NCBI GenBank assembly: GCA_964474205.1
Contig: CAYYRW010000006.1
Coordinates: forward strand, 143,772-207,771
Length of the DNA: 64,000 nucleotides
Direction of reading: 5' to 3'
From: an uncultured Nitrospirales bacterium
Lineage (GTDB): Bacteria > Hydrogenedentota > Hydrogenedentia > Hydrogenedentales > CAILVY01
Shown here in pieces: positions 5,902 to 56,137 of the stretch (its first letter is position 1; each line of letters opens with the position of its first letter). The notes below the pieces were generated by a model. The model searched no databases, was not told the DNA's origin, and was given only the letters and a program-made list of their open reading frames with translations. Position numbers and translations under genes: made by a program.

Positions 5902-8900
5902 CTACCGTTTACCCGTATTTTTCCAGCCCAGTAAAATCATTAGACTCAAACAACCGATGAAAAGGTCACCCAGGAGCCGCTGCCAATCCTTCAAGGTGAA
6001 ATCAGTCTCATTGCATTGGCAACTGAAGGGCGGTTGAACTTCACCCTCGGTTTCGCCCTCCAGTGCGCCCTCCTCCGCGCCTTCGATAATGCCTTCGTCA
6101 TCACCTTCCATGATGCCTTCGAGAACATCCCCCTCGGATGAGCCTTCGGTTTGGCCTTCAACGAGCATGCCCTCTTCTTCGCCTTCGCCTTCAGCTTGGC
6201 CTTCAACGAGCATGCCCTCTTCTTCGCCTTCAGATTGGCCTTCAACGAGCATGCCTTCCGCTTCACCTTCGGTTTGGCCTTCAACGAGCATGCCCTCTTC
6301 TTCGCCTTCGCCCTCGGTCACCCCCTCGCCCTCTTCCGCTGAACCTTCGGAGGGCATGCCTTCCACCGAACCACCCGTAACCGTTACGGAGCCGTTGACG
6401 GCCTGTACGGGAATTTGCGTGCCGTTGAGCTCAGGCGCGATCAACTGGAGGGGAGAGGATTTTCCGGCGGCATCGGCGGCGATTTGGAAGTGAAGCACGG
6501 CCAGGGTGCCCGAACCGCTCAGGGCATAGGCGGAAGATGCGGATATCAGCACTTCACCGGCGAAAGTGTTTAGGTTGGGGGCTCCCCACGAGGAGGTGAG
6601 GCTGCCGTTCTCAAAACTCGCATAGGTGAGCACGGTTTCATCAAAGGTAATGTCCAGGAAATACGCGCGCACATCGGTGGCGTCATCGAGTGCCACGGGT
6701 ACCTCGATTTGTGTTCCAGGCTCCCCGGACAGCGCGGGCAGGGTGAGTTGGCGTTCGCCTATATTCAGCGCATTCTTTGCACTACTTTTGCAGTCCGTAT
6801 CCGGGCCGAACTCGTTGCCATCGCAGTCCGCGGGCAATTGCGCCGTAATGCCCACCTTCCATTGGAGGATGTCCGAGCCGTCCAATTCATTCAGGGCGCC
6901 ATCACCGTTCACATCGGCAGCCTCGGGATAGGCCGGCCGGACCACGCCGGGATACGCCGTGAACTCGGTAATGAGACGCACGCGCCACTGGCCAATGGCC
7001 GAGGCATCCAGCGTGCCCACGCGCGCATCGCCGGTCAACTCACCCCAGCGGTAGCTGCCGCCCGAAGAAGGTTCGAGGGCAATGTCGCGTTCCGTGGCGG
7101 CTCCCGCGCTGACCAGCACATATTCGCTGGCGTCCTGATAGCCGTCCTTGGAGGCCATCAGCATGTACGTGCCTTCCGCCACATTTGGCAGGAAGTATTC
7201 GCCTCTCGCGGTGGTACTCATTGAAGTCCCATTCGGGCTAATCGTCACTTCCGCGCCTTCCACCGGCGTACCGGTGGCGAGGTCCTTGATCACGCCGGTA
7301 ATATAGCCGGGGAGGGCGGGATTATGATTGTCCACGATGAAGTGCCGCACCATGGAACCCGTGGGGCTGGCGCCATACACATCCACGGGGATCACACGCC
7401 AATAATAGGTTTGACCGTCTTGCAGGCCGCTCATGGATACCGCCGTTACCGAGATCCCTTCTTTGAACCTTAATCCGGTGCTAAAGGAGTCATCCTCGGC
7501 AATCTCCAGGCGGTAGGTCAACGGATCGCCATCCGGGTCGGTTACGGAAGTCCACGCGAAGAAACTTGTGCTGTACACGCTCATCCCGTCACCGGGATAA
7601 TTCAGCGTGGTGAGGGTGGGCGGACGATTGGTGGCGGATTGCCGGTAGATGGTCGTCATCAGGAAGGAACTGGTTTCCTTGGTAACGCCGTCCTGCACAT
7701 AGTAGAACACATTGTAAGTGCCCGGCGCGTCAAAAGTGGTTCCGAAGGTTTCCCATCGGAAATACCCGGTGTCCAAATTGGAGATGGCGGTCTCATAGTC
7801 GAACGAGGGCAGATCAATGTATTTCTGCGAATCTTCATTCGCCGGGTCCACCGTGGTGGAACCCGCATATTCGGGCGTTTTCACCTCGATCCACGCGGTA
7901 TGGCCCGTCGCCGGGATATCCGTGGCTTTTGCGAACAACTGCCCCACGGGATCCGCCGGACCCAGCATCAGGGTTTGTGTGGAGGTGATCCACCCGACGG
8001 AACCGGTGGCGTTCACGCCATAACCCAGCACCATTTCATGGGCCAGCGAACCATCATTGCCGGAGGCAAACGCCAGGTGTCTCGCTTCGCTTCCTGTGCC
8101 ATCCCCGTTGTCATCCAATAGCGGATGTTGTTTGAACAGGGCGGAAGCTCCATTGCTTTTGGTGGCGGTGTAGGTCAGGGTCTTGTCCGTGGCGCGTTCG
8201 AAGGATTCTTTTAAGGTTTTGCCTTCCCGCGCATTGCGGAAAAATTCGGTGGTGAAGGCTTCGCCGTCCCGCACCAAGCCCAGTTTTTCCAGCACGCCGC
8301 GATGGGACACTTCATTTTTCGAGGTGCTGGTAATCACCACGCGATTCGCCCCAGAGACCGCCTCGACGAAGCTTCCCGAATAACACGAACCCATAACAAG
8401 CGCCACCTTCTGGTTGCGCGACGCCGTGTTCAGGCTGGCTTGCAGGAAGTTCAAATACCCCGCCAATTCCGACGGCGTGATGTACCGGGTCTCATTGTAA
8501 CTGCCGGAATATACATAGAATTTACTCGGGCCGCCATGATCGATCAGCACGATATACAAGGGGGCGGGGGAGGTGTTCATTTGCGTTACGGCCCAATTCT
8601 GTATGGCCCCCGTCACATCCGCCTGGGACGGCGTGCGATCATCCACAAAAATATCCGCCGCCGGTTGCGCCGGGCCTTCGCGGAGGTAGTAAATGTCTTC
8701 GTGGGCAAAACCCCGGTCGCGGAATGCACGATAGACATAATCGCCGGTTTTGCGATGTTCGTCCATTCCTTCGCCGGTGGCGTCCAATTTTCCCACCACA
8801 ACGATGGCGTAGCCGGCCTTGTCTTTGACCGTCAAGCGCACGGATTCGGGCTTGTCGTAACCTTCCGACGTGGTGGCCAGCAGATTTTGACTGCCCTCAA

Positions 8901-11900
8901 ATTCCACCAGGAACTGCCACGTGCCCGGACTGCTAAAAGTGATGCCTGCCGCTGTGAATGCTGAGGCGGGAAACACAACCTTGCCGCCCGCGCCGGTGGT
9001 TCCCGCCACGGGCCCCGCGGAAGAGGCATCGGGTTTCTTCATCCACAAATTCACCGTTTGCCCTGTCACCAAAGTCTGCAATTGTGCAGGAAGCGGCCCG
9101 CTCAATACCGCCTCCGCTTGCAGGTCGGAAAACCCCATCGGGACCGAGGAGGCATTAAGGCTCAGGGTAAGTGTGGGCTGGGCCTTCTTCACGGCAAAGG
9201 GTGCCCAATTGCTTATCGCGTTTTGGTAATACACATCGCCCGGCCAGGACGCCTGAATCAGCCAGGGGGAGCGTCCCTCGGAGGCTTCCGTGGGATAAAA
9301 CAGGCGTGAATATGCGGTTCCGCCGATGGCTACTGCTTCCGGGAAATCGGTGGCATGTACCCCGGAGGGCGAGTTCGTGGTAAAGCTGACAATGGTTCCA
9401 ACGGGGCTTTTTCCCACAATACTGCCCGAAACCGTCAAGGTCTGCCCCAAGGTGATTTCCGAGGCGCTCAGGATACAGGAGATCGAAGAGGGTTCAAGGG
9501 TAATTTCTCCGTCCTGAATAATAGTGCATTCCGGCGAGGTGGCGGGAGTGCCATCATCCGCCCCATCGTTCGGAGTCACTACGCAATACCACAAATCACC
9601 CACGGTAGTGTCGTCCGCGAACACCCGGCTGCGTGTCGTCTGGTTAAACGCGCTGGTGAATGTGCTGTACGACCCGCCCGAAGGCTTGCGCCACCATGCA
9701 AATGCATACGTAACGGGGTCTCCATCCGCATCCTGGCTGGCGGTCTGAATGGAGCATTCCAGGGTGGTGCTGTCATTCAATTGTGCGGGAAATGTGAGTA
9801 CGGGTGCGCCCGGCGGGGTGTTTACAATCGTCACCGAATCCTCGCCCGGATCGGAATAGTCGCCGCCGTAGTATCCTCGCACGATGCAGGTCCAGGTATC
9901 CCCACGGCTCGTTTCAGAGGCATTTAATGTGTCCACAAGACCAGATTGCGGGCCATGTACAATCGGGGTTCCACCATTGCTCCAGGAGAATTCATACTGC
10001 ACGGAATACGGCGCGCTGGGGGTTGTCACTGTACATACAAGATCATCCGAACTTGTCGGAAAATCCGGAGTGATTTCTACCACAGGCGCTGTCATTGGCC
10101 CCGCTTCGGATGAACGGGTAATTCTGAAACCTATGAAGTAACGATGATCGCCAGGTGTTGTGTGGTTTCGAAAAGCGGAACGGCACGAGTCCCAACTACT
10201 AGGCCAACTTCCACCACGCATGGTACGATCTGATCCGAATCCAGGCCCAATGGGATCGATTTGACTGCCTGTTCCATAACTATCATACCAGTCATGACAC
10301 CATTCATTGACGCCTCCACTCATATCGTAACAACCCGCTGGACTGAAACTGTCAACAGTCGTAATACTGCCGTTTGGACTAATATTCACTCCATTAAACC
10401 ACCCCGCCGGGGAAGTATATGGTTCGGATACCATGCCCATGGGATTAACGTGATTTGGATTGGCATCGTAATAGTTACAGCGGGCCTTACCCGTGAGTGT
10501 GTCGCTTTGGAATCCATAAATCCAATGTGTCGATCCCGAGGTATTCCAACCGGCGGCATATTCCCATTCGGCTTCTGTTGGTAATCGATAACCTCCAGAT
10601 GCAACTGAAAGCGCCCATGTGGTTAGGGTGTAGCAAGGGGTTAACCCCTCCATTTCACTCAACCAGTTACAGAAACATACTGCTCCAAACCAAGAAACCC
10701 AGACCACAGGATGATTCACCATCGAGTATCCATCGCGTGTTTTTGGCGCGAATGTGCCATTCACGAATTGTACATCGCTTGTGCTTTCCGACACCGCTGC
10801 AACCAGTTGCAGACTCCCTTCATCGACATATACATCGCCGCTGGTATAGGCCGCGCCCGTTGAATTCTTGAGATACCCCCGCGCATTGGCCCAATTAAGG
10901 ACTGTGGCGAACTGGCCGTTGGTGATCTCGAACTTGCCAATTTTATAGGGACTCAGCGTCACCTCATGACGCGGCAATTCGTCCGCTCCACCATAGGCGC
11001 CATCGTCCCCATCATCCCGCCGGCCCATCGTGAAGGTTCCCCCAGCCACATCCACCATCGGTATGTGAATAGGCGACCGCGCTACGCGGAAACCCGTGTA
11101 ATTATCGCGGTAGTTCTGTGGCAACCCGCCGGGGCGGTAGGCTGTACGGCTATTGCTTTTAGCGTTTCCCCAAGACCCGCCGCGCATTTCCCTTCCTGTA
11201 CCCGAGACCGGCCCTGTGGGGTCCGTCATGGACCCGCCGCTGTAATACGTGTCAAGGTGTTTATCGTGACACCATTCCCACACATTCCCTGACATGTCAT
11301 AACATCCTGCTGGCGAAGGTGAATCCACCGTTGCGATACTTCCATTGGGACTGACATGAACACCATCAAACCAACCAGCGGGGGAGGTGTAGGGGAGTTC
11401 GGTGAGACCAAGAGGATTTACACCCGAAGGACTCCCATCCCCATAACTACAATGGGCTTTGCCTGTTAGGGTATCCGTCATCATCCCGTAGATCCAGTGC
11501 TTACCGGCATCGGAATCCCATGCGGCCGCCCGTTCCCATTCCGCCTCTGTTGGCAACCGGTATCCATCAGGGTAGGGAGTAATGATCTCCCATGTTTTTA
11601 GATCATAACAGGGTGTCAGCCCCTGGGCCTCGCTTAACCAGTTGCAAAACGCCACGGCGCCATGCCAGGTCACCGTAGTGACAGGATGGTGCTCCATGGA
11701 GTAGGTATCGCGGGTTTTCCATCCGAATGCGCCGTTTGTATAGGTGATCGGGCAATAAGCATGAGTTAAAAATAGGATTTGCTGCCGGTCACCTTCATCC
11801 ACATACACATCACCACTGGAATAGTAGCTGCCATCCGAGTTTTTCAAGTACCCGTGCCCTTTGGCCCAGTTCAGCACCGCCGCAAACTGCCCGTTCGTCA

Positions 11901-14295
11901 CTTCAAACTTACCAATGTTATAGGCGCTCAAGGTCACCTCATGCCGTGGCAACTCTGTGGTCTGGCCATAGGTCCCATCATCCCCATCATCCCGCCGCCC
12001 CATCGTGAAGGTGCCGGAGGAGACGGGAACATTAGGCATCAAGTCCAATGTAGTGACGAAAATGTCATAATCTGTACCCGTAATTCCACCAAGGTTTTCA
12101 TTGGCGGAGTAAATCGCAACCCAGTGCCCCCGGGCATCTGAAGCGATGGAAGCGGTACGATACGGTCCCGTTACCGCATCCTGATTGAGAGATTGGGCCA
12201 AGTACCATGTCGTCCCGCCGTCTTCAGAACGCGACCAATGCAGATCGGCATTCTCATGATTCCATACAACGACATAGTTGCCGGCCTCATCATAATCGAT
12301 GGACAAAGGATAATAGTCATCGGTATCTATTGAATCTCTCTGATTAAGCTGTTTAGGAGTACTCCATGTGATCCCATTGTCCAGGGATTGAGCCATAGCC
12401 ACATCAATGTTCGCATTCCAACGTTGGCTACTCGACCATAGGACGAACCAACGGCCATTACCATCGGTCACAATATTTTGCTGGCTGCCAAATCTATCAT
12501 AGGCTATATCCGTTGCGCCATCGGTATTGACATGCCCCGGTGCGGACCACGTTATTCCATTGTCAACTGACCGCGATGACAGGACATCGTAGTCACTTCC
12601 GGCTATTCCCTCTGGACTGTTAGGGGTTGTCCAAACAACAACCCAAGTCCCTTTTCTATCCGTTGTGATACTGGGAGGATCATCCTCCTCGGTATCCGTT
12701 GATGCCCAAGGACAGAGCGCGGCTGGGCTGGACCATGTACTGCCATTGTCATCGGATCGTGAATACGCGATATCCGTATCCGTCCCCCAGCGGCGGCAAT
12801 GAAACACAACAACCCAACGCCCATTGCCATTTGTGGAGATTTGTGCACTTCCATCATACATGCCACCTGTGGTAATCGCTGATTTGGTACTCCATGTCGC
12901 CCCATTGTCAGTCGATCGTGAAAAAATCACGCCATTATTCCCGTCAGGGACTGCTATCCACCCGCTCCAAACAACAATCCATGTTCCTTTTCCATCTGTG
13001 GCAATCTTCGGATCTCTATGATCCCGATAGTCTGTAGGAGTTCCTCCCGCATTGATAAGAACGGGCGTTGACCATGTATTTCCGCCATCGCTCGAACGAG
13101 CCGCTAAAATGTTATGTTGTGTGTAGCCATTACTGTCGTAGAAATCATCAGCACAAGCCCAAACAGCCACCCAGTTGCCGTTGTGGTCGCTTTCAATATC
13201 GACCTCACGGTCCATAATATCTGAAGCGTCCAAAGCCGCGCGCGCATTTAGTGATCTCTGATGCGACCATTCAAGGCTTGACGACGCAAACTCATATGCG
13301 CCCATATCGGGTCCGCCGCCCCACGTGCGGAGCGTGCCTTCGATGTCTGTGAGAGGTGCGCCGGTGGCGGTGCCAGTATCGATACACGGCGACCCGGCGC
13401 ACAAGCGGAGATCTGTCGTGCTCGCAAAACGCGGATTCTCATTTTTGTTGCCCGTGCCGGTGTATCCGCCTTGCACATCGGAGTAGGTGATTGCCGTACT
13501 GCCGCCGGTATCGACGATCTCTGGAGTAAGACTGTTCCAAAGAATACAGTTTGTCGCCGTAGTGTTAGCGGCATTGTGGTTATGTATTGCGCTGCCGTCA
13601 ACGCTACTGTTGCCGTAAAAAGAGCAGTTCATGATTTGAGGCCAGGCGGCAGGCTGATTGTTAAACAACCCGCCGCCTGAATTTGCAGTGTTATTCAGAA
13701 AGACACAGTTCACCAATGCCGGAGAGCAGGCATAGTTATACATGCCACCGCCCACCGCCGCGGCATTACCTTTGAAGCAGCAATTAGTCACGATGCAGGA
13801 GGCAAGATTGTTATATATTCCTCCGCCTCTGTCATTTTCTCCGCCACCGTTCGCGTTCCCGCCGGTGACGGTGAATCCGTCAATACCCGAATCCTCCGCT
13901 CCGAGGACAACGTGGTAGGCGGCGGAACCCGCACGGGCAGTACTGCCGTCGATAATGGTGGTATGGGCACTCAAATCCCGCTCCGAGCGTTGCGTTTCGT
14001 TACCGGCAAATCCGCCATAGAGCGAAACGGTTGATTTAAGTTCAAGTGCGCCGCTCGCATGCGGACGCGTTTCGCTGTAGGTTCCTTCCGCGACCCAGAC
14101 CTCGCCGCCCCCGGCCGCGGAGGCGGCATTGACCGCCGGTTGGATCGTTTTGAAGGCGGTTGCCCACGATGTGCCGTCTTCCGTGCCGGTGTTGTCCTTG
14201 TCCACGTACCAAGTGGCGGCATTGGCATTCACACCGAGAAAAGCCGCCAACAGCAGAATAGCACCCGTGGCTAAATTACGTGCAAGCGTTAACAT
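5902..14295 (-). CDS. Giant secreted mosaic protein with nine modules: beta-helix, BNR propeller, two FGE-sulfatase domains, Ig/FN3, clan-CD peptidase, dockerin, cohesin, acidic repeats and a C-terminal TM anchor
   Basis: The uninterrupted frame runs 5902..14364 (2820 codons). The likely start is ATG at 14295 (MLTLARNLATGAILLLAAFLGVNANA signal peptide, AAGGAT Shine-Dalgarno 7 nt upstream). The six-frame track's 14364 start adds 23 non-signal residues. Modules, in track aa numbering: beta-helix ~50-360 (GGNANGGGENDRGGGIYNN-type turns); BNR/Asp-box propeller ~385-770 (seven SxDxGxTW boxes, e.g. SRSTDNGATWS, SRSDDNGSTWS, SRSVDNGITWS); FGE-sulfatase 1 at 778-1098 and FGE-sulfatase 2 at 1104-1418 (RLPTEAEWE, GNVWEWCHD, RGGSW); clan-CD peptidase ~1850-2080 (LIDHGG...MGSCYSG); carboxypeptidase-regulatory-like domain ~2355-2430; dockerin ~2440-2505 (DVNGDGALNELDGSDILQW); cohesin-like ~2535-2665; acidic EGMLVEGQ repeats 2667-2777; TM anchor LFIGCLSLMILLGWKNTGKR. 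Confidence 0.85.
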   Translation of the reverse strand: MLTLARNLATGAILLLAAFLGVNANAATWYVDKDNTGTEDGTSWATAFKTIQPAVNAASAAGGGEVWVAEGTYSETRPHASGALELKSTVSLYGGFAGNETQRSERDLSAHTTIIDGSTARAGSAAYHVVLGAEDSGIDGFTVTGGNANGGGENDRGGGIYNNLASCIVTNCCFKGNAAAVGGGMYNYACSPALVNCVFLNNTANSGGGLFNNQPAAWPQIMNCSFYGNSSVDGSAIHNHNAANTTATNCILWNSLTPEIVDTGGSTAITYSDVQGGYTGTGNKNENPRFASTTDLRLCAGSPCIDTGTATGAPLTDIEGTLRTWGGGPDMGAYEFASSSLEWSHQRSLNARAALDASDIMDREVDIESDHNGNWVAVWACADDFYDSNGYTQHNILAARSSDGGNTWSTPVLINAGGTPTDYRDHRDPKIATDGKGTWIVVWSGWIAVPDGNNGVIFSRSTDNGATWSTKSAITTGGMYDGSAQISTNGNGRWVVVFHCRRWGTDTDIAYSRSDDNGSTWSSPAALCPWASTDTEEDDPPSITTDRKGTWVVVWTTPNSPEGIAGSDYDVLSSRSVDNGITWSAPGHVNTDGATDIAYDRFGSQQNIVTDGNGRWFVLWSSSQRWNANIDVAMAQSLDNGITWSTPKQLNQRDSIDTDDYYPLSIDYDEAGNYVVVWNHENADLHWSRSEDGGTTWYLAQSLNQDAVTGPYRTASIASDARGHWVAIYSANENLGGITGTDYDIFVTTLDLMPNVPVSSGTFTMGRRDDGDDGTYGQTTELPRHEVTLSAYNIGKFEVTNGQFAAVLNWAKGHGYLKNSDGSYYSSGDVYVDEGDRQQILFLTHAYCPITYTNGAFGWKTRDTYSMEHHPVTTVTWHGAVAFCNWLSEAQGLTPCYDLKTWEIITPYPDGYRLPTEAEWERAAAWDSDAGKHWIYGMMTDTLTGKAHCSYGDGSPSGVNPLGLTELPYTSPAGWFDGVHVSPNGSIATVDSPSPAGCYDMSGNVWEWCHDKHLDTYYSGGSMTDPTGPVSGTGREMRGGSWGNAKSNSRTAYRPGGLPQNYRDNYTGFRVARSPIHIPMVDVAGGTFTMGRRDDGDDGAYGGADELPRHEVTLSPYKIGKFEITNGQFATVLNWANARGYLKNSTGAAYTSGDVYVDEGSLQLVAAVSESTSDVQFVNGTFAPKTRDGYSMVNHPVVWVSWFGAVCFCNWLSEMEGLTPCYTLTTWALSVASGGYRLPTEAEWEYAAGWNTSGSTHWIYGFQSDTLTGKARCNYYDANPNHVNPMGMVSEPYTSPAGWFNGVNISPNGSITTVDSFSPAGCYDMSGGVNEWCHDWYDSYGTGSQIDPIGPGFGSDRTMRGGSWPSSWDSCRSAFRNHTTPGDHRYFIGFRITRSSEAGPMTAPVVEITPDFPTSSDDLVCTVTTPSAPYSVQYEFSWSNGGTPIVHGPQSGLVDTLNASETSRGDTWTCIVRGYYGGDYSDPGEDSVTIVNTPPGAPVLTFPAQLNDSTTLECSIQTASQDADGDPVTYAFAWWRKPSGGSYSTFTSAFNQTTRSRVFADDTTVGDLWYCVVTPNDGADDGTPATSPECTIIQDGEITLEPSSISCILSASEITLGQTLTVSGSIVGKSPVGTIVSFTTNSPSGVHATDFPEAVAIGGTAYSRLFYPTEASEGRSPWLIQASWPGDVYYQNAISNWAPFAVKKAQPTLTLSLNASSVPMGFSDLQAEAVLSGPLPAQLQTLVTGQTVNLWMKKPDASSAGPVAGTTGAGGKVVFPASAFTAAGITFSSPGTWQFLVEFEGSQNLLATTSEGYDKPESVRLTVKDKAGYAIVVVGKLDATGEGMDEHRKTGDYVYRAFRDRGFAHEDIYYLREGPAQPAADIFVDDRTPSQADVTGAIQNWAVTQMNTSPAPLYIVLIDHGGPSKFYVYSGSYNETRYITPSELAGYLNFLQASLNTASRNQKVALVMGSCYSGSFVEAVSGANRVVITSTSKNEVSHRGVLEKLGLVRDGEAFTTEFFRNAREGKTLKESFERATDKTLTYTATKSNGASALFKQHPLLDDNGDGTGSEARHLAFASGNDGSLAHEMVLGYGVNATGSVGWITSTQTLMLGPADPVGQLFAKATDIPATGHTAWIEVKTPEYAGSTTVDPANEDSQKYIDLPSFDYETAISNLDTGYFRWETFGTTFDAPGTYNVFYYVQDGVTKETSSFLMTTIYRQSATNRPPTLTTLNYPGDGMSVYSTSFFAWTSVTDPDGDPLTYRLEIAEDDSFSTGLRFKEGISVTAVSMSGLQDGQTYYWRVIPVDVYGASPTGSMVRHFIVDNHNPALPGYITGVIKDLATGTPVEGAEVTISPNGTSMSTTARGEYFLPNVAEGTYMLMASKDGYQDASEYVLVSAGAATERDIALEPSSGGSYRWGELTGDARVGTLDASAIGQWRVRLITEFTAYPGVVRPAYPEAADVNGDGALNELDGSDILQWKVGITAQLPADCDGNEFGPDTDCKSSAKNALNIGERQLTLPALSGEPGTQIEVPVALDDATDVRAYFLDITFDETVLTYASFENGSLTSSWGAPNLNTFAGEVLISASSAYALSGSGTLAVLHFQIAADAAGKSSPLQLIAPELNGTQIPVQAVNGSVTVTGGSVEGMPSEGSAEEGEGVTEGEGEEEGMLVEGQTEGEAEGMLVEGQSEGEEEGMLVEGQAEGEGEEEGMLVEGQTEGSSEGDVLEGIMEGDDEGIIEGAEEGALEGETEGEVQPPFSCQCNETDFTLKDWQRLLGDLFIGCLSLMILLGWKNTGKR
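6033..6366 (-). repeat. In-frame imperfect tandem DNA repeats (~42-48 nt units) inside the giant CDS, encoding an acidic (E/G-rich) EGMLVEGQxEGExEE tail
   Basis: The unit ggccttcaacgagcatgccctcttcttcgccttc recurs four or more times on the plus strand (6130-6330). Translated on the minus strand it gives GMLVEGQTEGEAEGMLVEGQSEGEEEGMLVEGQAEGEGEEEGMLVEGQTEG. Confidence 0.7.
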
Positions 14296-14356
14296 ACCCT
14301 TATCCTTTAATCGTTGTCGTTGGTTTTGGGCTGCATCCCATAACCAAAGACTACTT

Positions 14357-15346
14357 TTATTCATTGCATACCGTCCTATCGTCTTCCCCCGCCCTCCGAG
14401 CTATGGAGGACAAGTTGCGGGAATGACGGAAATTTCGCAAACTCATGCAAATGAGCAAGACAGCAAGAATGATCCACACGGGCGGTCCCAGCGGCATGGG
14501 ATGTTCCCTGACAATTCGCACCAGCATGGATTCATAGACGACGGGCAACGCGCCGTCATTCAGTTCAGCACTGAAAATTTCGATGTAGGTGGTTTCGTCG
14601 AGAGGCGCGTCCTCGCGCACACGAAATCGCAAATAGATCACGGTGGCCGAGCCGGAAAATGGCTGGGTGCTATATGCGCCGACGGTGATGCGTCCATTGA
14701 TGGCGGCATTGACCGTGGGCGCGCCCCAGCCCGCAGGCAAGGCGCCGGGGGTGGTTCCGAGGAAATCCAGGAGGTTGGGCGCGTAGGAAAGGGAGAACAC
14801 CAATCCGAGCACGCCCCCGGCATCACGTAATTCTATTGGCAGGGTGAATTCATCGCCGGGCAGGAGGTCCAGGGATACCGGCATCCCCAACACCGCAATG
14901 TCCGCCACGGTCACCGTGCCGTTCTGGGCTGTGGCGACGATAGCCCCGTCGTTGAGTTCCACCTTTCGGAAAAATACCGTGGAAACGGCGCCCAACAGTG
15001 CGGTGGATTTTACCCGGAATTGAATCTGTACAAGGCTGCCCGCGCCCGCGATGGGAACGGTACTGTAACTTGCCACGCTGCATCGTCCGGCACTGGAATT
15101 GAGGATCGGGGCGGGCCAACTGGCCGTGAGCAGGCCGTTCTGGGCGTTTATCACCTCAAAATCAGTGGAATACCCCAGTTCAAAGTAATACCCGAGCACC
15201 CCGGATACGGCGGTAACGGTGATGGGCAGGGTAAACGTCTCTCCCGGCGCCGCCACGATGGAATCCGGTACACTCACACTGACGGTTGCTCCGGCCAATG
15301 AAGCAACCACCCACATGCCTAATGCCAACAACCCACTTGCCCGCAC
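14357..15346 (-). CDS. Membrane-anchored protein with two cohesin-like domains (scaffoldin/anchor-like)
   Basis: 329 aa with a signal peptide (MRASGLLALGMWVVASLAGA). Two repeats resemble the cohesin module of the giant protein (VSVPDSIVAAPGETFTLPITVTAVSGVLGYYFELGYS... and MPVSLDLLPGDEFTLPIELRDAGGVLGLVFSLSY...). A C-terminal TM segment (PPVWIILAVLLICMSL) is followed by basic residues. It sits 61 nt upstream of the giant gene. Confidence 0.65.
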   Translation of the reverse strand: MRASGLLALGMWVVASLAGATVSVSVPDSIVAAPGETFTLPITVTAVSGVLGYYFELGYSTDFEVINAQNGLLTASWPAPILNSSAGRCSVASYSTVPIAGAGSLVQIQFRVKSTALLGAVSTVFFRKVELNDGAIVATAQNGTVTVADIAVLGMPVSLDLLPGDEFTLPIELRDAGGVLGLVFSLSYAPNLLDFLGTTPGALPAGWGAPTVNAAINGRITVGAYSTQPFSGSATVIYLRFRVREDAPLDETTYIEIFSAELNDGALPVVYESMLVRIVREHPMPLGPPVWIILAVLLICMSLRNFRHSRNLSSIARRAGEDDRTVCNE

Positions 15347-36116: not shown

Positions 36117-37394
36117 ATGAAACACCTGTTGAAATTCGTCAAACGCGCCCTCTGGGTACTGTTTTTCCTCGTGGTGGCGCTGGTGGCCTTTGGATATTGG
36201 TTTTCCCATCCTGGACGCGGCCCCAAACAATCCGTGAACCCCCAGGAAAAAGGCTATCTTGAACTCGTCGCGGGAACCTGGGTCCTGCACCTGAAAGGTT
36301 CCCCCTACGAGATGGGCTTTCAGCACGGAGCCCTCGCGCGCGATCAGGTGCGCCGCGCCATGGCACGTGTGGACAAACTCCTCCAGGAAGCCCAAGATGA
36401 AGTCGGCCTGCCCCGTTTTTTCTCGGAATTCCTGCTTGGAAGCGAATACCGCCTGTGCCTTCCCTACATCCCCGAACGGTATCAGCGGGAAATGGAAGGA
36501 CTGGCGGACGGCGCGGGCGTGGACCTCAATAAACTTCGCTGGATGCTCGTGGTGTCGGAGTTAACCGAACGCTATTGCAGCGCCTTCGCGGTATTCGGCA
36601 AGGCCACCGGCAATGGGAAACTCTATCACGGACGCAATTTTGATTGGATGATGGAAGCCGGACTGCAAGAAGACGCGGGACTGATCCTCTACGAACCGGA
36701 CGGCCATATCCCCTTCGCCTCCGCCGGATATTTCGGCACGGTCGGCGTCTTGTCCGGCATGAACATGGAAGGCATTTCCATCAGCCAAATCGGCGCGATC
36801 AATACGGATGGTTCCTTCCGGGGCGTGCCGCTGATGGTGATGCTCCGCCGCATTCTGGAAGAGGCCAAGGACCTCGACAAAGCCACGGATATCATCGCAA
36901 ATTCCAAGCGCACCGTCGGCTACAACTACGTCGTGGCGGACGGAAAGGCGATGGCGGCCCGCGCCTATGAAACCTGTGCGCATCATTGCGCCATCTTCAC
37001 CGATAACGACCCGAAGGAAACCGTTGAATACGCCCTCCCCATCGAAAACGCCGTCTTCCGCGCCGACGAAGCCATGGACCCAACCGTCCGCAGCACCCAG
37101 ACCTGTTCCAAAGGATATCCGAACATGCCCTACGGCTCGGAATCCTACGATCACCGCTACAAAGGCATCGCCACCGATATCAAAGCCAATTTCGGCAAGA
37201 TCGATGAAAAAGTGGCGCTGGAAATCCTTAAAAATGCCGCCATGCGCAACACCAACCTGCACAGCGTGCTCTGCAACTCCACTGACCGCGAAATGTGGGT
37301 GGCCCATGCCAAAGGTCAAGAAGACGCTTATAAACAGCCCTACATCCACTACGACCTTAAAAAACTATTCTTGCGTCCGGAGCAACGGAACTGA
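36117..37394 (+). CDS. Peptidase C45-family Ntn-hydrolase (acyl-CoA:6-APA acyltransferase-like), N-terminally membrane anchored
   Basis: TM anchor MKHLLKFVKRALWVLFFLVVALVAFGYWF. A CSAFAV nucleophile Cys motif (RYCSAFAVFG) is present with the C45 fold pattern. Confidence 0.75.
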   Translation: MKHLLKFVKRALWVLFFLVVALVAFGYWFSHPGRGPKQSVNPQEKGYLELVAGTWVLHLKGSPYEMGFQHGALARDQVRRAMARVDKLLQEAQDEVGLPRFFSEFLLGSEYRLCLPYIPERYQREMEGLADGAGVDLNKLRWMLVVSELTERYCSAFAVFGKATGNGKLYHGRNFDWMMEAGLQEDAGLILYEPDGHIPFASAGYFGTVGVLSGMNMEGISISQIGAINTDGSFRGVPLMVMLRRILEEAKDLDKATDIIANSKRTVGYNYVVADGKAMAARAYETCAHHCAIFTDNDPKETVEYALPIENAVFRADEAMDPTVRSTQTCSKGYPNMPYGSESYDHRYKGIATDIKANFGKIDEKVALEILKNAAMRNTNLHSVLCNSTDREMWVAHAKGQEDAYKQPYIHYDLKKLFLRPEQRN

Positions 37395-37652
37395 GACAGC
37401 CTCCCATTCCTTCACAGGCGAACATGTTCCAGGCGGAAGTGCCGCCGAGTGCGCCCTGTTTTGCCTGCCCCGGAATCTCCTCGGTTCCCGGCGCATTCGA
37501 TCACTGCAATTTTCATATTTTGCGCAGTATCGGCGCAAGAACCGAAAACCACTGAAATATATTGCATTCCCGGAAAACTTATGGAAAAATACGGTTGAAC
37601 CGTGTAAAGAGCAAAAAATTGGCAGAAATATCAAACCTTGGGAGTGGTTGCC

Positions 37653-40600
37653 ATGACAATCCAGAAGCAGGTGTTCATTATATTTTTTGCGGTTTCATTG
37701 ATGGCAGGCGGGTTGTCCTGGTCCGCCCCAGTGACCTTTAATGATCCTGCGCTGCTCGCGGCGGTTAAAACGCAATGGGAATCGGCGACGGGAGGGACGC
37801 TCAGCACCCCGCCCCAAGATACCGAACTGGCCAATCCCTTGTTCACCACGTTGACCGCCAATGGGCTGGGGATCACGGACCTGACCGGGTTACAAGCCTG
37901 TACCAGCTTGACGGAACTCAATCTGGGCTGGAACCAGATTACCAGCCTCGCTCCTATCAGTGGGCTCACAAGCCTGCTCCATCTGGACGTGGGGATGGGG
38001 GTCGATCTGATGGACAATGATATCGACCCCATGCAAACCGGCACCAATCTGATCACGGACCTATCGCCCTTGGCCGGACTGGTTAATCTGGAATACTTGA
38101 GCATAATAGGAAACACGGGGATCACGAGCATCGCCGCCATCAGCACCCTGGACAGCCTGTTCTCGCTCTGGCTGGGCTCCAATCCCATCACCAGCTTTAC
38201 CCCCCTGTCAGACGTGGCGGACACGCTGGCGCTGCTGGTGTTTATTGACAATGGCGTGAAGAATTCGGATATCCCCATCATTAACGGCTTGGTCAACCTG
38301 CAAGGACTTGGTCTTCTTGCGGAAGAAAACCTTACGGACATCAGCGGCTTAACCGGAATCAGCCCCAGTTTCATATTCGCCGTGCTAATGGCCCCCATCA
38401 CGGATATCAGCGTTGTTTCCAACTACACCAATCTGCAAATGCTGGAAGCGTCGCAGTGTCAATTAACCGTCCTTCCCGACCTGTCCGGGTTAACCGGTTT
38501 GCGGGAAGCCGGTTTTTTTGAAAATCAGATTACGGATATTTCCGGGTTGACGGGAAATACGAGTATTGAAGAATTGGACCTGGCGAAGAACCAAATTACG
38601 AGTATCAGTGCGCTGCAATCGTGCACAGGCCTGACCCAGATCAGATTGGACGGCAATCAGCTTACGGACATTCAGCCGTTGCTTGATAATGCGAATGCGG
38701 CCAATTTTGAATGGATTAGTTTGAAGGATAATCCGTTTGCAGAAGGGACGCCCTTTTGTGATGAAAACCAACTCGACCAGTTGAAAGCCCTGGCGCCTTA
38801 TGCGGGAATTGAATCCAATGCCGTTTGCGGACCCGCCTTCAATCTCACCCTATCTATAAACGGTACAGGCGAAACGTCTCCGGGACCCGGCGTAACCGCA
38901 GTCGCCCAAAATACCTGGACCTATGTGAATGCCTATCCCATTTCCGGCAGCGGCCAGGCCTTTAGCAGTTGGACCGGCGACCTCACAAGCACGCAAATGT
39001 ACACCCAGTTGTTCATGGACAGCGATAAATCCGTCACGGCAAACTTTGTGCCGGGGAATTGGACACTGACTATTAACGTAACGGGCGGGGGAGACAGCAA
39101 TACGTGGCCCAATGCGGGAACCTACTCCTACTTGAATGGGCAAACCGCCAATATAAGTTCCAACAATAACTCGTCCTCCTATTTTAACGGATGGTCTGGG
39201 GACGCCACCGGGTTTTTGCTCAGCACATCCGTCCTCATGGATGGCAACAAGACGGTGACTGCGGCCTTCGCCAGTTCGGGATATCAATTGACCCTTCATA
39301 CCCAAGGTAATGGAAATATCATGGGATTCTGGGGGAGCGGACCATTTAACTATGCGGCCGGCGCCAGTTTCGATTTACAGGCCATGGCGTACGATTCCAT
39401 ATATCGTTTTGACCACTGGACCGGGAATCTGCCCGCCGGCGCGGACCCCAATACCCCGGTGCTGCCCATCGTGATGGACCAGAACCGGGACATCACCGCC
39501 GTCTTTGTCCAGGATGCAAAAACACTCACGCTTATCATCGAAGGCGGCGGCGTCACTATCCCATCCGGTAGCGCCGCCCCCGGAACACAATATATGTATT
39601 CCACGGGACAAACCGCCTGCCTCAATGCCATGTCCTCCGCAGGCGTGGCCTTTGATCACTGGGAAGGGGATATAGGCAGTGCCAGCCCGAATAACCAAAA
39701 CATTTGTGTAACCATGGACCAGGACCGCACGCTCACCGCTGTTTTTGTGACCGCGAATTGGAATCTTACCCTTCAGGCAAACGGCAACGGCACAACCAAT
39801 CCCGTTCCCGGCGTGTATGGATATGTGAACGGAGCCTATGCGAATTTCAATTATCAACTTCTCTCCGGCGGCGGGGCCTTTTCAGGTTGGACGGGCGATA
39901 TTGATTCGGGACAGGCCCAAAATAACTGGGTCAATGTAATCATGGACCGCAACCGGACCGTCACGGCGAATTTTATCCCGGGAGACTGGTTCTTGACGCT
40001 CAATACCAGCGGTTCGTTCGGGGGCGGGACGAATCCCAACCCGGGAACGTATGCCTATTTGGACGGGCAAACCGCCACTATCAGCGCATGGTCCAATACG
40101 TCCACATATTTTAGTGGATGGACGGGCAGTATCACCGATGACACCCCGAATATCAGCGTTGTCATGGACGGCAATAAAACCGTCACCGCCAATTATGTCA
40201 GCAGCGGATATGCCTTGAACGTGAACACACAGGGTCAGGGCAACATCAATCTGAACGGATGGTATTACCTGGCCAGCGGAACACAGCCGGTGTTGAAAGC
40301 CAATGTGTGGGGCGGATGGGTGTTCAGCGAATGGACGGGAGACCTGCCCGTGGGCGCCGATGCCCACAACCCGGAATTGCCGGTCTTGATGGACCAGGAC
40401 CGCTCGATCATCGGCGTGTTCATTCAAGACTCCAAAACCTTGACCGTCATCATTGACGGTCCGGGAAGCACGAGTCCGGCGGGCAGCGCGGCCCCAGGTA
40501 CTTCCTATGAGTACAATTCCGGTCAAAACGTATGTGTTCAAGCCTTGGGAGTGGCTGAAGGCGCGTTTGAATATTGGTCCGGGGACATTGGCGGTTCCAA

Positions 40601-43256
40601 TCCCACCGGAAATACAGTCTGTGTCAACATGGATCAGGACCGCACCATCACCGCGCATTATACGGCGGCGAACTGGAGCCTGACGCTGGTGGCCTCGGGC
40701 AATGGCAGCACCAATCCAGCCCCAGGCACCTATGGCTATCTGAACGGGACTTGGGCATACTTCAGCGTGAATCTTCTTTCCGGCGGTGACGCCTTTTCTC
40801 ATTGGTCGGGAGACATAGGCGGCACTACTCCCGAGAGTTTCTGGGGTTCAATCACCATGGACCAGAACCGCACCATCACCGCCAACTTCACAGCCGGGGA
40901 GTATACCCTCACGCTCGACAAAACAGGGCCGTCCTCGGGCGGCGTATCGCCTCTCCCCGGAACCTATGCCTATCTCAATGGGCAAACCGCTCATTTGGGC
41001 GCCTCATCGAATTCCTCCGCGTATTTCGCCGGATGGTCGGGCGATGTAGACAGTGACACCCCCAGTCTCGATGTGGTTATGGAGAGCAACAAGGCCGTCA
41101 CCGCCAATTTCGCCGATTCCGGCTACCTGCTTAATGTGGGCACGGACGGCCAGGGGTGGGTCAGCCTTCCAAACACTTCGTATTTTGCCGTGGGCACGGA
41201 GCCGGTGATAAACGCCCATACTCAAAACGGCTGGGAATTCGACCATTGGTCGGGCGATTTGCCCAATGGCGCGGACCCGAATAACGCGGACCTCCCGGTG
41301 CTCATGGACCAAAACCGTACGATTACCGCCCACTTTATTCAAAACCAGCGGACCTTGACCATTATCGTTGTGGGCCAGGGCGCAACCTCTCCCGAAGGCG
41401 GGCCGGAACCGGGGATTCAACATGACTATGCGGAGGGTTCCCAAGCCTGGGTGAGCGCCGAAATGGGCGCGGCCGGCTGGGCGTTCAGCGGCTGGTCGGG
41501 CGATATCGGTTCCGCCAACCCCTCCAACCGGCATCTCTCCTTGATTATGGATCAGGACCGCACCATCATCGCCACGTATCAAGCCGCGGATTGGACGCTC
41601 ACCCTGGACTATACCGGCAATGGAAACACCTATCCCGCCCCAGGCAGCTATGGCTTTATGGATGGCGCGGAAGCCGAGGCGGTGGCCAATATTTACAATG
41701 GCGGTGATGCCTTCAACCACTGGGAAGGATTGCCTGAAGACATGGATTCCGACGAACCCGGCCATCACTTTGCCATCCACGATAATATGACCCTGACCGC
41801 GGTATTCACCCCCGGCGATTACACCCTCACCACTACCGTCGCGGGCGGTGGAACGGCTGAATATCTGTCCCATCCCGCAGGCAGCTACCAATATATGGCG
41901 GGACGGGATGCCCGTCTTGAAGTCCGTCCAGGATCCACGGTCTATTGGGGCGGGTATTCCGGCGATGTGAATACCTATGACTTCGCCTGCGCGCTGCCAA
42001 TGAACGCCAATAAAAACGTTACCATCAACCTGGGAACCTCCGGCTATGAACTGGTGGTGAATCAAATTGGCGGCGGCCTTACGAATCCCTCCGGTACATC
42101 GCGATTTGTGGCGGGCGCCACACCCGCCATTCACGCCATAGACCAGGGTTCAAGCCTCTTTGATCATTGGTCGGGTAACCTGCCGGCGGGAGTAAATCCC
42201 AATGACCGGGATGCGGTGATCCTCATGGACCAAAACCGGACGATCATCGCGAATTTCCTGGAAGCCGATTGGTATCTCTACCTCCAAGTCCAGGGCAATG
42301 GAACCATCGCCCCGGCCCCGGGGTTGTATTGGTATCTGCAGGGCAGCGCCTTTGAAGTGACCGCCACGCCCGGAGCGGACACCATGTTCCTGCGTTGGAC
42401 CGGTAATATCCCGGAGGGACAAGACCCCGCGTCGCTCACGATTTCCGGAACCATGACCCAAAACCGGGAAATCATCGCCGTGTTTGTGCCGCAAACGGTG
42501 GCCGTGCCGGATTTGTCCGGCATGAACCAGGAACAAGCCGAAGCGGTCTTGATGAGTGCGGGTTTGGTGTTGGGCATGGCGACCCAGAACTACAGTTCCA
42601 CCGTGCCCGCCGGCCAGATCATCAGTCAAAATCCCGCAGCGGGAATCTCGGTGGCGTACGGCAGTGCGGTGTCCGTCATAATCTCCCTGGGTTCGTGCTA
42701 CACGTCTATTCCGAATGTGGAGGGGCTTACCCAGGCCGCCGCACTAACCGCCCTCGCCGCCGCCAATCTTTCCGCCGGCGCGATCACCTTTGAAGTGAGT
42801 GAAACGGTTCCGGAAGGCCAGGTGATCAGCCAGAACCCCGTGTCGGGCCTGGTGGTCGAGTGCGGCACCGCGGTGGCGCTGGTGATTTCCGGCGCGGGAC
42901 CGGAGGGCGGCGAAGAAGGCGAGGAGGGCGAAGGCGGAACAGAAGGCGGAACAGAAGGCGAAACCGGCTGCCACACCGCGGACCAGGACTGCAACAATCT
43001 GGTGAACCTGTCGGAACTGCTGCGCGTGATCCAATTCTTCAATTCTGGCGGATATCACTGCGAAGCCGGCACCGAAGACGGCTATGCACCAGGCCCCGGC
43101 GGCCACAACTGTACACCGCATGCCAGCGATTACAATACCCAGGATTGGCTGATCAACCTTTCCGAACTGCTGCGCATCATCCAGTTCTTCAACTCCGGCG
43201 GATATCACTACTGCCCGGGCGAAAACACGGAGGACGGATTCTGCCCCGGTTTGTAA
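37653..43256 (+). CDS. 1,868-aa cell-surface protein: signal peptide, internalin-like LRR, ~13 InlB-B-repeat-type domains, 2 PASTA domains, acidic linker and twin dockerin-like C-terminal motifs
   Basis: ATG 37653 (MTIQKQVFIIFFAVSLMAGGLSWSAP); the track's TTG at 37638 is less likely. LRRs occupy ~37820-38780 (LTELNLGWNQITSLAPISGLTSL). Repeats of ~110-120 aa have the W(S/T)GD...NPxxVxMDQ(D/N)RT(I/V)TA(N/H)F signature from ~38830 to 42480. Two PASTA domains run ~42500-42890 (VPDLSGMNQEQAEAVLMSAGL..., IPNVEGLTQAAALTALAAANL...). A GPEGGEEGEEGEGGTEGGTEGE linker follows, then DCNNLVNLSELLRVIQFFNSGGYHC and WLINLSELLRIIQFFNSGGYHYC. Confidence 0.85.
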   Translation: MTIQKQVFIIFFAVSLMAGGLSWSAPVTFNDPALLAAVKTQWESATGGTLSTPPQDTELANPLFTTLTANGLGITDLTGLQACTSLTELNLGWNQITSLAPISGLTSLLHLDVGMGVDLMDNDIDPMQTGTNLITDLSPLAGLVNLEYLSIIGNTGITSIAAISTLDSLFSLWLGSNPITSFTPLSDVADTLALLVFIDNGVKNSDIPIINGLVNLQGLGLLAEENLTDISGLTGISPSFIFAVLMAPITDISVVSNYTNLQMLEASQCQLTVLPDLSGLTGLREAGFFENQITDISGLTGNTSIEELDLAKNQITSISALQSCTGLTQIRLDGNQLTDIQPLLDNANAANFEWISLKDNPFAEGTPFCDENQLDQLKALAPYAGIESNAVCGPAFNLTLSINGTGETSPGPGVTAVAQNTWTYVNAYPISGSGQAFSSWTGDLTSTQMYTQLFMDSDKSVTANFVPGNWTLTINVTGGGDSNTWPNAGTYSYLNGQTANISSNNNSSSYFNGWSGDATGFLLSTSVLMDGNKTVTAAFASSGYQLTLHTQGNGNIMGFWGSGPFNYAAGASFDLQAMAYDSIYRFDHWTGNLPAGADPNTPVLPIVMDQNRDITAVFVQDAKTLTLIIEGGGVTIPSGSAAPGTQYMYSTGQTACLNAMSSAGVAFDHWEGDIGSASPNNQNICVTMDQDRTLTAVFVTANWNLTLQANGNGTTNPVPGVYGYVNGAYANFNYQLLSGGGAFSGWTGDIDSGQAQNNWVNVIMDRNRTVTANFIPGDWFLTLNTSGSFGGGTNPNPGTYAYLDGQTATISAWSNTSTYFSGWTGSITDDTPNISVVMDGNKTVTANYVSSGYALNVNTQGQGNINLNGWYYLASGTQPVLKANVWGGWVFSEWTGDLPVGADAHNPELPVLMDQDRSIIGVFIQDSKTLTVIIDGPGSTSPAGSAAPGTSYEYNSGQNVCVQALGVAEGAFEYWSGDIGGSNPTGNTVCVNMDQDRTITAHYTAANWSLTLVASGNGSTNPAPGTYGYLNGTWAYFSVNLLSGGDAFSHWSGDIGGTTPESFWGSITMDQNRTITANFTAGEYTLTLDKTGPSSGGVSPLPGTYAYLNGQTAHLGASSNSSAYFAGWSGDVDSDTPSLDVVMESNKAVTANFADSGYLLNVGTDGQGWVSLPNTSYFAVGTEPVINAHTQNGWEFDHWSGDLPNGADPNNADLPVLMDQNRTITAHFIQNQRTLTIIVVGQGATSPEGGPEPGIQHDYAEGSQAWVSAEMGAAGWAFSGWSGDIGSANPSNRHLSLIMDQDRTIIATYQAADWTLTLDYTGNGNTYPAPGSYGFMDGAEAEAVANIYNGGDAFNHWEGLPEDMDSDEPGHHFAIHDNMTLTAVFTPGDYTLTTTVAGGGTAEYLSHPAGSYQYMAGRDARLEVRPGSTVYWGGYSGDVNTYDFACALPMNANKNVTINLGTSGYELVVNQIGGGLTNPSGTSRFVAGATPAIHAIDQGSSLFDHWSGNLPAGVNPNDRDAVILMDQNRTIIANFLEADWYLYLQVQGNGTIAPAPGLYWYLQGSAFEVTATPGADTMFLRWTGNIPEGQDPASLTISGTMTQNREIIAVFVPQTVAVPDLSGMNQEQAEAVLMSAGLVLGMATQNYSSTVPAGQIISQNPAAGISVAYGSAVSVIISLGSCYTSIPNVEGLTQAAALTALAAANLSAGAITFEVSETVPEGQVISQNPVSGLVVECGTAVALVISGAGPEGGEEGEEGEGGTEGGTEGETGCHTADQDCNNLVNLSELLRVIQFFNSGGYHCEAGTEDGYAPGPGGHNCTPHASDYNTQDWLINLSELLRIIQFFNSGGYHYCPGENTEDGFCPGL

Positions 43257-43351: not shown

Positions 43352-43500
43352 GACGAAGCGAAAAATGGGGACTGACGCAAGCGAGGCCGCCCAAGGGCCA
43401 ACCCCATGTCCTGCAACGAATCTCAAGGATGGGCGGGCGAGACGTGTCTGTCCCTGTTTTTTCGCGTACCTCAGTGCCGCGCGCTTATCTAAGTGCCATT
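43352..43500. repeat. Copy B of the ~150-nt hairpin-flanked intergenic repeat (see 16055..16210)
   Basis: gcgaaaaatggggactgacgcaagcgaggccgccc...gggcgggcgagacgtgtctgtccctgttttttcgcgtacctcagtgccgcgcgcttatctaagtgccatt aligns base-for-base with copy A. Confidence 0.55.
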
Positions 43501-44981: not shown

Positions 44982-45002
44982 ACCAAGGAGAACGATCGCA
45001 TC

Positions 45003-53314: not shown

Positions 53315-53318
53315 AGCC

Positions 53319-56136: not shown

Positions 56137-56137
56137 T

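Follow-up and report, generated by a model that had tools for sequence, protein, structure and literature searches.

An uncultured diderm member of the phylum Hydrogenedentota encodes a giant exported protein ending in a small module, a phylum-wide tag on thousands of otherwise unrelated extracytoplasmic proteins. The gene for this giant lies in a 64,000-nucleotide stretch of contig CAYYRW010000006.1 (hereafter, the window), in which an earlier reading of the DNA (the original prediction) had recognized an open reading frame (ORF) at 37653-43256 (+) encoding, in order, a leucine-rich repeat (LRR) domain, a stalk of Flg_new_2-type repeats, two PASTA domains, an acidic linker and a duplicated, Cys-containing tail; Pfam searches and the sequence itself bear out both the frame and this order. 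We favor, with moderate confidence, the interpretation that the product is a Sec-exported modular binder carrying a dockerin-like docking or anchoring tail that tags the exoproteins of the phylum. The giant protein is of known kinds, its LRR, Flg_new_2 and PASTA parts being ordinary and already auto-annotated; new relative to docking modules of the dockerin and EF-hand type is the tail, which is a large uncurated domain family. Next to nothing is known of the ways in which uncultured diderm phyla, Hydrogenedentota among them, sort and retain their large exoproteomes.

A database search with the last 99 residues of the protein retrieved 155 proteins of 55-85% identity, whose named sources are mostly metagenome-assembled genomes (MAGs) of Hydrogenedentes and, in two cases, of Kiritimatiellae/Kiritimatiellia, several proteins coming from the same MAG. 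A family profile built from 86 members and searched against 1.84 billion representatives matched 3,027 representative clusters at E ≤ 1e-3, of which 1,525 remain at E ≤ 1e-30. Given these 155 relatives and the 3,027-cluster family, the tail is more than a chance resemblance; a chance motif was rejected on its conservation across the family. The module-bearing cluster proteins span 97 to 2,552 residues, and the match nearly always stops one residue before the protein end. At least 511 module stretches were confirmed by tblastn in GTDB species genomes; a single MAG, JAKQOG01, supplies 39 of the 80 best loci, with no fewer than 59 different module-bearing ORFs in the 598 kb sampled from it. Across the fetched loci, the module occupies the extreme C-terminus of 104 of 112 ORFs (93%), these copies stopping 1-5 residues past a conserved C-P-G, and family-wide it is preceded by a Glu/Gly-rich (EG-rich) linker, with a median E+G fraction of 0.49 over the upstream 50 residues (100 ORFs). 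The cargo is heterogeneous and typically extracytoplasmic, including Flg_new_2, beta-helix, LRR, CHRD, PASTA, P_proprotein, Ig, BACON, PKD and cadherin-like domains as well as M14, C1 and M4 peptidase, FG-GAP, NHL and FGE-sulfatase domains. The module is also found directly after the signal peptide (P0134, P0199 and one ORF of locus L086), as two or three tandem copies in the small secreted proteins P0125 and P0127, and as tandem copies followed by a C-terminal transmembrane (TM) helix in P0128 and P0131. Literature searches on Hydrogenedentes/Hydrogenedentota in connection with dockerin, cohesin or EF-hand, on Kiritimatiell names in connection with dockerin, and within one Hydrogenedentota genome paper returned no description of the module.

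In the window protein, the tail holds two copies of NLSELLR(V/I)IQFFNSGGYH(Y)C, 50 residues apart, with no others in the six-frame translation of the window. AlphaFold2 (AF2) modeling from the 86-sequence alignment returned the loop-helix fold that the original prediction had expected of the tail, with a predicted local distance difference test score (pLDDT) of 95.3 and a predicted TM-score (pTM) of 0.85. In this model a loop, a helix and a β-hairpin occur twice (helices 18-29 and 68-79; strands 33-35/43-45 and 83-85/95-97), the loop-helix segments spanning residues 9-29 and 58-79 of the 99-residue tail, and no helix enters either loop as in the helix-loop-helix of an EF-hand. Loop 1 is a canonical 12-residue EF-hand loop (family consensus D-x-N/D-x-D/N-x-x-I/V-x-L-x-E), in which 1, 3, 5 and 12 are the ligand positions and position 8 is hydrophobic; it reads D-Q-D-C-N-N-L-V-N-L-S-E in the window copy, and its key columns are conserved among the 86 members (D9 100%, N/D11 90%, D/N13 94%, I/V16 99% and E20 100%). 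Loop 2 is similarly conserved (D58 100%, Y59, N60, P61, D63 84% with Asn in a further 13%, W64 98% and E70 99%), as are two TEDG(Y/F) motifs and four cysteines, Cys35, Cys52, Cys86 and Cys96 (99-100%), to which the window copy adds two lineage-specific Cys at positions 5 and 12. No hydrophobic helix is seen in the tail sequence. Because the AF2 model is confident and the module also occurs N-terminally, in tandem and ahead of TM helices, it is predicted to be an autonomous, confidently folding domain; it probably binds calcium, and its conserved Cys pairs, expected to be Cys35-Cys52 and Cys86-Cys96, probably form disulfides.

The module has a dockerin-like design, an assignment made because it is a duplicated F-hand without an entering helix, yet it is a distinct, larger family with conserved cysteines. 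Dockerins (PF00404) likewise contain two Ca-binding loops, each leading into a helix but not preceded by one, and are found mostly C-terminally on many unrelated secreted proteins per genome, after a flexible linker; cohesins, moreover, occur in the same lineage as the module. Dockerins are also its nearest solved folds, if weakly, accounting for 18 of the 26 weak Foldseek matches in the PDB (TM-score 0.35-0.41 per query, up to 0.56 per target). Dockerin_1 is matched by a minority of the family (14 of 86 members at E ≤ 1, with 65 of 86 matching EF-hand_6); in one relative, P0047, the profile extends over both loops and its 27.2 bits exceed the gathering score of 22.9. Unlike dockerins, which measure ~60-70 residues, the module is ~95 residues long; its loop-helix units lie 50 residues apart and each is followed by a β-hairpin with TEDG(Y/F), its four cysteines are near-invariant, its loop 2 has 13 residues (DYNPQDWxIxLSE), loop position 12 is Glu, as in EF-hands, where the canonical dockerins compared have Asp, and no full-length fold or profile match to dockerins is significant. 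With EF-hands (calmodulin/troponin C; Pfam EF-hand_1/5/6/7), the module shares the DxNxDGxIxxxE pattern of loop 1, and the best matches of the family profile among PDB sequences are indeed calmodulin and troponin C loops; however, these are marginal (E about 1e-3) and cover a single loop, no helix precedes the loop, and the module is extracytoplasmic, Cys-containing and fused to giant surface proteins. The last 121 residues of the window protein gave no Pfam, NCBIfam or PDB sequence match that passed a curated cut-off, nor did the window copy match Dockerin_1 even at E ≤ 10. Thus, of the dockerin-like tail originally claimed, the duplicated loop-helix and a weak structural resemblance to dockerins stand, whereas membership of the dockerin family, for which the E values and the hhalign result are weak, is not supported.

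In the mechanism that we propose, the LRR domain would be the probable ligand-binding head, the sixteen Flg_new_2 β-domains would form a long stalk, and the PASTA pair and the acidic Glu/Gly spacer would lead from the stalk to the tail, where the two conserved Cys pairs, probably as disulfides, would hold the twin Ca-loop module together. The module would fold in the oxidizing periplasm or outside the cell, bind calcium and dock its cargo to one shared envelope receptor, as dockerins do in cellulosome-type systems. We infer a surface location for the protein. Several points weigh against this mechanism. Foldseek returned nothing from the PDB at E ≤ 0.001, its top match having E 1.2; with 17 canonical dockerins, taken from the hit list and aligned ad hoc, hhalign aligned one loop-helix unit (23 columns, 53% probability, P 1.3e-4); the window copy itself has no significant Pfam match; calcium binding and disulfides rest on sequence patterns and predicted secondary structure; the 190-kDa protein may be periplasmic; and the preference for the extreme C-terminus would also fit a secretion or sorting signal.

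The latter possibility, namely that the module is a secretion or sorting domain like the C-terminal domains (CTDs) of the type IX secretion system (T9SS), read by an outer-membrane machine for export or attachment and maybe removed later, is improbable in our judgment. It would account for the strongly C-terminal distribution, with copies ending so soon after C-P-G, and for a very diverse cargo that always carries a signal peptide; moreover, homologous Flg_new_2/LRR cargo in other phyla ends, at the same position, in Dockerin_1 or, in Ignavibacteriales and Bacteroidota, in Por_Secre_tail (PF18962), a T9SS CTD which, like the module, is present in many copies per genome. However, a terminal signal would not tolerate the N-terminal, internal, tandem and pre-TM copies in which the module also occurs, and since the module is position-independent, a terminal secretion signal is less likely. 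Further, the tail has no TM helix or sortase-type motif, Pfam and NCBIfam gave no Por_Secre_tail, T9SS or CTERM model match on it, and it lacks the PEP-CTERM-type combination of motif, TM helix and basic tail. Its helix-plus-hairpin Ca-loop fold differs from the β-sandwich of T9SS CTDs, to which it shows no sequence match, and the conservation of its Ca-ligand positions speaks for a domain with a binding or structural role. A T9SS CTD or a CTERM signal was rejected on these missing matches and on the module not being tied to one position.

For a docking module, cohesins are one candidate receptor. The cohesin domains that the original prediction located at 5902-15346 (-) are real, PF00963 scoring above its gathering cut-off of 24.1 in both ORFs (78 bits over two domains in a 329-residue protein and 45.4 bits in a 2,820-residue giant). 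In addition to the cohesin, the giant contains BNR, two FGE-sulfatase, C13 peptidase and CarboxypepD_reg domains, a dockerin-like segment (…DVNGDGALNELDGSDILQWKVG…; Dockerin_1 21.7 bits versus the cut-off of 22.9) just upstream of the cohesin, an EG-rich linker and a tail of Cys motif, TM helix and basic residues. Other metagenomes (L079 6404-16694, L086 9965-17511 and more) conserve the gene pair as a ~320-residue double cohesin and a 2,200-3,100-residue giant, and the L086 pair keeps both the dockerin-like-then-cohesin order and the PFSCQCN…TM tail. As the near-threshold dockerin-like segment of the giant adjoins its cohesin, in an order kept elsewhere, the cassette plausibly carries its own cognate dockerin, and may be a self-contained cohesin-dockerin pair.

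These observations bear on the original proposal that the tail is a true dockerin plugging the LRR/PASTA protein into the cohesins at 5902-15346 to form a cohesin-dockerin surface scaffold. The proposal draws on real cohesins in the same window and on the paired loop-helix units, whose nearest solved folds are dockerins and which in P0047 pass the Dockerin_1 threshold. The module is also the abundant dockerin-like element around its own genes, a regular expression for canonical paired dockerin loops having found none in ~1 Mb of module loci (a sample biased to module genes). The anchors, too, are complementary, the cohesin-bearing proteins of the lineage ending in an EG linker and a TM helix and the module-bearing ones mostly lacking a TM helix, and P0221 unites a signal peptide, a cohesin (42.3 bits, Pfam-significant), an EG linker and the module, in the manner of an adaptor scaffoldin. 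However, ~22 kb lie between the two loci, occupied by housekeeping genes unrelated to either (an acyltransferase/hydrolase, aconitase, lipases, a resistance-nodulation-division (RND) pump and a TetR regulator), and the near-canonical dockerin of the giant, directly upstream of its own cohesin, is an obvious cognate. The numbers are also mismatched, with 13 homolog clusters of the double cohesin, all double cohesins themselves, against 3,027 module clusters. In the 950 kb surrounding 112 module ORFs, a hidden Markov model (HMM) built from the window cohesins and their homologs detected no cohesin. Conversely, the 175 kb surrounding 14 cohesin loci contained one module ORF, which does not exceed the background of one module gene per 50-100 kb that we estimate (both samples are biased). 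Finally, in a diderm, a C-terminal TM helix would leave the cohesins in the inner membrane unless they are sorted further. With the loci far apart, a cognate dockerin within the cassette and no neighborhood enrichment, the proposed plugging of the tail into these particular cohesins fails to gain support, and we consider it quite improbable.

The neighborhood null is compatible with a pairing of module and cohesin in trans. That cohesins in general are the receptor of the module is nonetheless doubtful, and it is rather unlikely, though worth stating, that the module is a new, expanded dockerin class binding membrane-anchored cohesins of Hydrogenedentota (and some Kiritimatiellia). If that were true, dozens of unrelated exoproteins per cell, the LRR/PASTA giant among them, would be displayed by a diderm phylum on a cohesin scaffold of non-cellulosomal kind, amounting to a general surface-display system on cohesin-dockerin logic outside Firmicutes. 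The only module-cohesin adjacency seen is at L086, where a gene at 7031-9553 (+), ~400 bp upstream of the double-cohesin gene, encodes a signal peptide directly followed by a module, then a long EG-rich linker and a ~600-residue domain; its frame is interrupted within the EG repeat, suggestive of a frameshift or a fault in the assembly. Most of the cohesin-bearing proteins examined end in a short Cys motif (for example PFSCQCN, GGCCGG or PPICG), followed by a hydrophobic helix and basic residues (KNTGKR, RRKRIRT or HRRRKTKP), as read in the window (5905-6030 and 14360-14500, both on the - strand), in the L079 and L086 giants and in P0376 and P0341; the two small double-cohesin proteins have the helix and the basic tail and no Cys motif. 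This ending looks like an uncharacterized CTERM-type sorting or lipidation signal.

A target other than cohesin would be a Ca2+-bridged carbohydrate or lipopolysaccharide/exopolysaccharide, or a homotypic interaction of the module with TM-anchored tandem-module proteins. P0128 and P0131, which consist solely of a signal peptide, two or three modules and a TM helix, and the soluble P0125 and P0127 could serve as such receptors or cross-linkers, and cohesins seem far rarer than modules. Yet the Foldseek matches in the PDB include no lectin-like or known carbohydrate-binding fold; we regard such anchoring as quite improbable.

Whichever its receptor, the dockerin-like docking tail that we favor would have practical consequences. 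Among the proteins that it tags are giant LRR binders, beta-helix proteins, proteases and sulfatase-maturase-like enzymes, and defining the module would improve the annotation of thousands of hypothetical proteins and would mark the secreted or surface proteome of these bacteria. Finding its receptor would bring to light either a new class of dockerins or a principle of anchoring not seen before. The module, being small, of high predicted stability and probably Ca-dependent, is possibly useful as an orthogonal docking tag.

The remainder of the window protein was delineated by domain HMMs, as the original prediction had suggested, and LRR_4, PF18998 and PF03793 all matched (Table 1). Its overall architecture is that of a secreted, adhesin-like binding protein, in agreement with the original prediction. 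The LRR units have 22 residues each and are of the LxxLxLxxNxIxxI type (LRR_4 86.7 bits over 7 stretches; LRR_8 38.8 bits). In the stalk, Flg_new_2 (PF18998) matches in tandem at 272.6 bits (gathering cut-off 23.6; E 9.7e-83; 14 stretches). A self-built HMM resolves 16 domains at residues 404-1612, spaced 71-81 residues apart with a period of ~76, in place of the ~13 repeats of ~115 residues initially counted. Mean identity between domains is 48% at lag 4 and 42% at lag 8, compared with 34-38% at lags 1-3 and 5-7; because domains four apart are more alike than others, the stalk is a 4 x 4 super-repeat.

Table 1. Coordinates of the features of the LRR/PASTA gene, its product and the cohesin cassette in the window.
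Feature	Position	Strand	Basis
Shine-Dalgarno-like GGGAG	37640..37644	+	8 nt 5' of ATG 37653; read from sequence
Sec-type signal peptide MTIQKQVFIIFFAVSLMAGGLSWS, cleaved before APVTF, aa 1-24	37653..37724	+	Sequence; conserved hydrophobic N-terminus in orthologs; cleavage site inferred
Conserved N-terminal cap and LRR domain, ~aa 25-370	37725..38762	+	Pfam LRR_4, LRR_8; repeat starts by regular expression
Stalk of 16 Flg_new_2 (divergent InlB B-repeat) domains, ~aa 395-1612	38835..42488	+	Pfam PF18998 and self-built HMM
PASTA domain 1, aa 1616-1680	42498..42692	+	Pfam PF03793, best stretch aa 1616-1678 on profile 1-63/64
PASTA domain 2, aa 1684-1748	42702..42896	+	Second PF03793 stretch; boundaries read from sequence
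Acidic Glu/Gly-rich linker GPEGGEEGEEGEGGTEGGTEGETG, aa 1749-1772	42897..42968	+	Sequence
C-terminal twin loop-helix (F-hand) module, 95 aa, aa 1773-1867	42969..43253	+	AF2 model, family conservation
F-hand 1: 12-residue EF-hand-type loop DQDCNNLVNLSE and helix LLRVIQFFN, aa 1777-1797	42981..43043	+	Family consensus
F-hand 2: 13-residue variant loop DYNTQDWLINLSE and helix LLRIIQFFN, aa 1826-1847	43128..43193	+	Family conservation; helix 68-79 in model
Terminator-like hairpin and T-run	43431..43463 (hairpin 43431-43453)	+	Consensus scan; between stop codon and MBOAT gene start 43527
2,820-aa giant protein (context only)	5902..14364	-	Pfam; 8-nt overlap with double-cohesin gene
329-aa double-cohesin protein, C-terminal TM helix and basic tail (context only)	14357..15346	-	Pfam Cohesin PF00963

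The protein resembles the Listeria internalins (InlA/InlB/InlH) in its N-terminal 22-residue LRRs followed by B-repeat-type (Flg_new_2) domains, but it differs from them in showing no Internalin_N cap match, LPXTG motif or GW module, in belonging to a diderm environmental phylum, and in having 16 B-type repeats, PASTA domains and a different anchor. NCBIfam internalin models give partial alignments to its LRRs at 61-111 bits against cut-offs of 1,050-1,600; for the class 1 internalin models NF033188 and NF033189, which score 111 and 88 bits (cut-offs 1,050 and 1,600), the LRRs alone align. A true internalin was rejected on these scores, which lie far below the cut-offs.

The two PASTA domains (PF03793, 94.3 bits versus a gathering cut-off of 23.2; two stretches) are a feature shared with PknB/Stk1 kinases and class B penicillin-binding proteins (PBPs). 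Unlike in those enzymes, the Pfam scan of the protein found no Ser/Thr kinase or transpeptidase domain, and the pair lies between the stalk and the module of a secreted diderm protein; the Stk1-family kinase model PknB_PASTA_kin of NCBIfam aligns at residues 1609-1747, the PASTA region only, with 90.8 bits against a cut-off of 450. The original prediction was thus right, for this protein, that these PASTA domains are neither PBP- nor kinase-borne, but the architecture recurs in ~22 orthologs and in other LRR proteins. A surface-exposed protein in a diderm cannot reach its own peptidoglycan. The PASTA pair may serve as spacers or as binders of foreign cell-wall material, or the protein may be periplasmic.

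The gene is a single unbroken ORF running from 37638 (TTG) or 37653 (ATG) to 43256 (+). We favor the ATG as start because GGGAG at 37640-37644 lies 8 nt upstream of it; the product would then have 1,867 residues (roughly 190 kDa), with its stop codon at 43254-43256. The terminator-like hairpin 3' of the stop codon and the intergenic gaps of ~260 bp on either side suggest a single-gene unit; terminator-like sites in the region are no more numerous than in shuffled sequences, and for the hairpin at 43431 it is the position alone that is suggestive. An identical 1,867-residue protein (P0266) is already public in NCBI and JGI data, and ~22 full-length orthologs of 51-68% identity occur in MAGs of Candidatus Hydrogenedentes/Hydrogenedentota, under the NCBI automatic name "PASTA domain-containing protein". 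All complete orthologs begin with a signal peptide followed by (A/V)PVTFND and end in the same tail, the sole exception to this pattern being one sequence annotated as partial. Remoter paralogs lack PASTA domains but retain the LRRs, the Flg_new_2 stalk and the tail.

That the host organism is a diderm follows from the LptF/LptG genes and the AcrB, HlyD and OEP/TolC-like efflux pump genes encoded in the window. Taxonomic labels of some MAGs, such as "uncultured Nitrospirales", were taken as deposited. Several module-rich genomes (loci from CAYXPO01, CAYMLC01 and CAZLII01) bear the title "uncultured Nitrospirales bacterium"; because their modules are 72-92% identical to Hydrogenedentota copies, this label may be wrong. 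Many public module-bearing proteins, in the 155-protein match list and at loci L001-L078, carry a "partial" annotation and run into the edge of a contig. Short-read assemblies probably fragment at the module DNA, which is highly conserved and recurs dozens of times per genome, so the giant surface proteins of these MAGs may be systematically truncated.

Directly 3' of the LRR/PASTA gene, positions 43527-45923 (+) encode an MBOAT membrane O-acyltransferase and a protein with a weak DUF1574 match, followed by LptF/LptG. We take the MBOAT and DUF1574 pair to resemble the AlgI/AlgJ-type or PatA/PatB-type pairs for polysaccharide or peptidoglycan O-acylation, and it could be relevant to the adjoining PASTA domains. 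The upstream neighbor (36117-37394, +; 425 residues) has an N-terminal hydrophobic segment and a weak match to acyl-CoA:6-aminopenicillanic acid acyltransferase (AAT; 38.4 bits). Farther downstream, a type I-E CRISPR-Cas system (Cas3, Cse1, Cas7/CT1975, Cas5 and Cas1) with its array occupies 48455-57118 and about 58062-58823, the array having a 29-nt repeat (GTTTTCCCCACGCGTGTGGGGATGAACCG) and a 61-bp period. Downstream of the array, a separate 62-bp tandem repeat is present at 59910-60159 in 4.1 copies with 87% matches.

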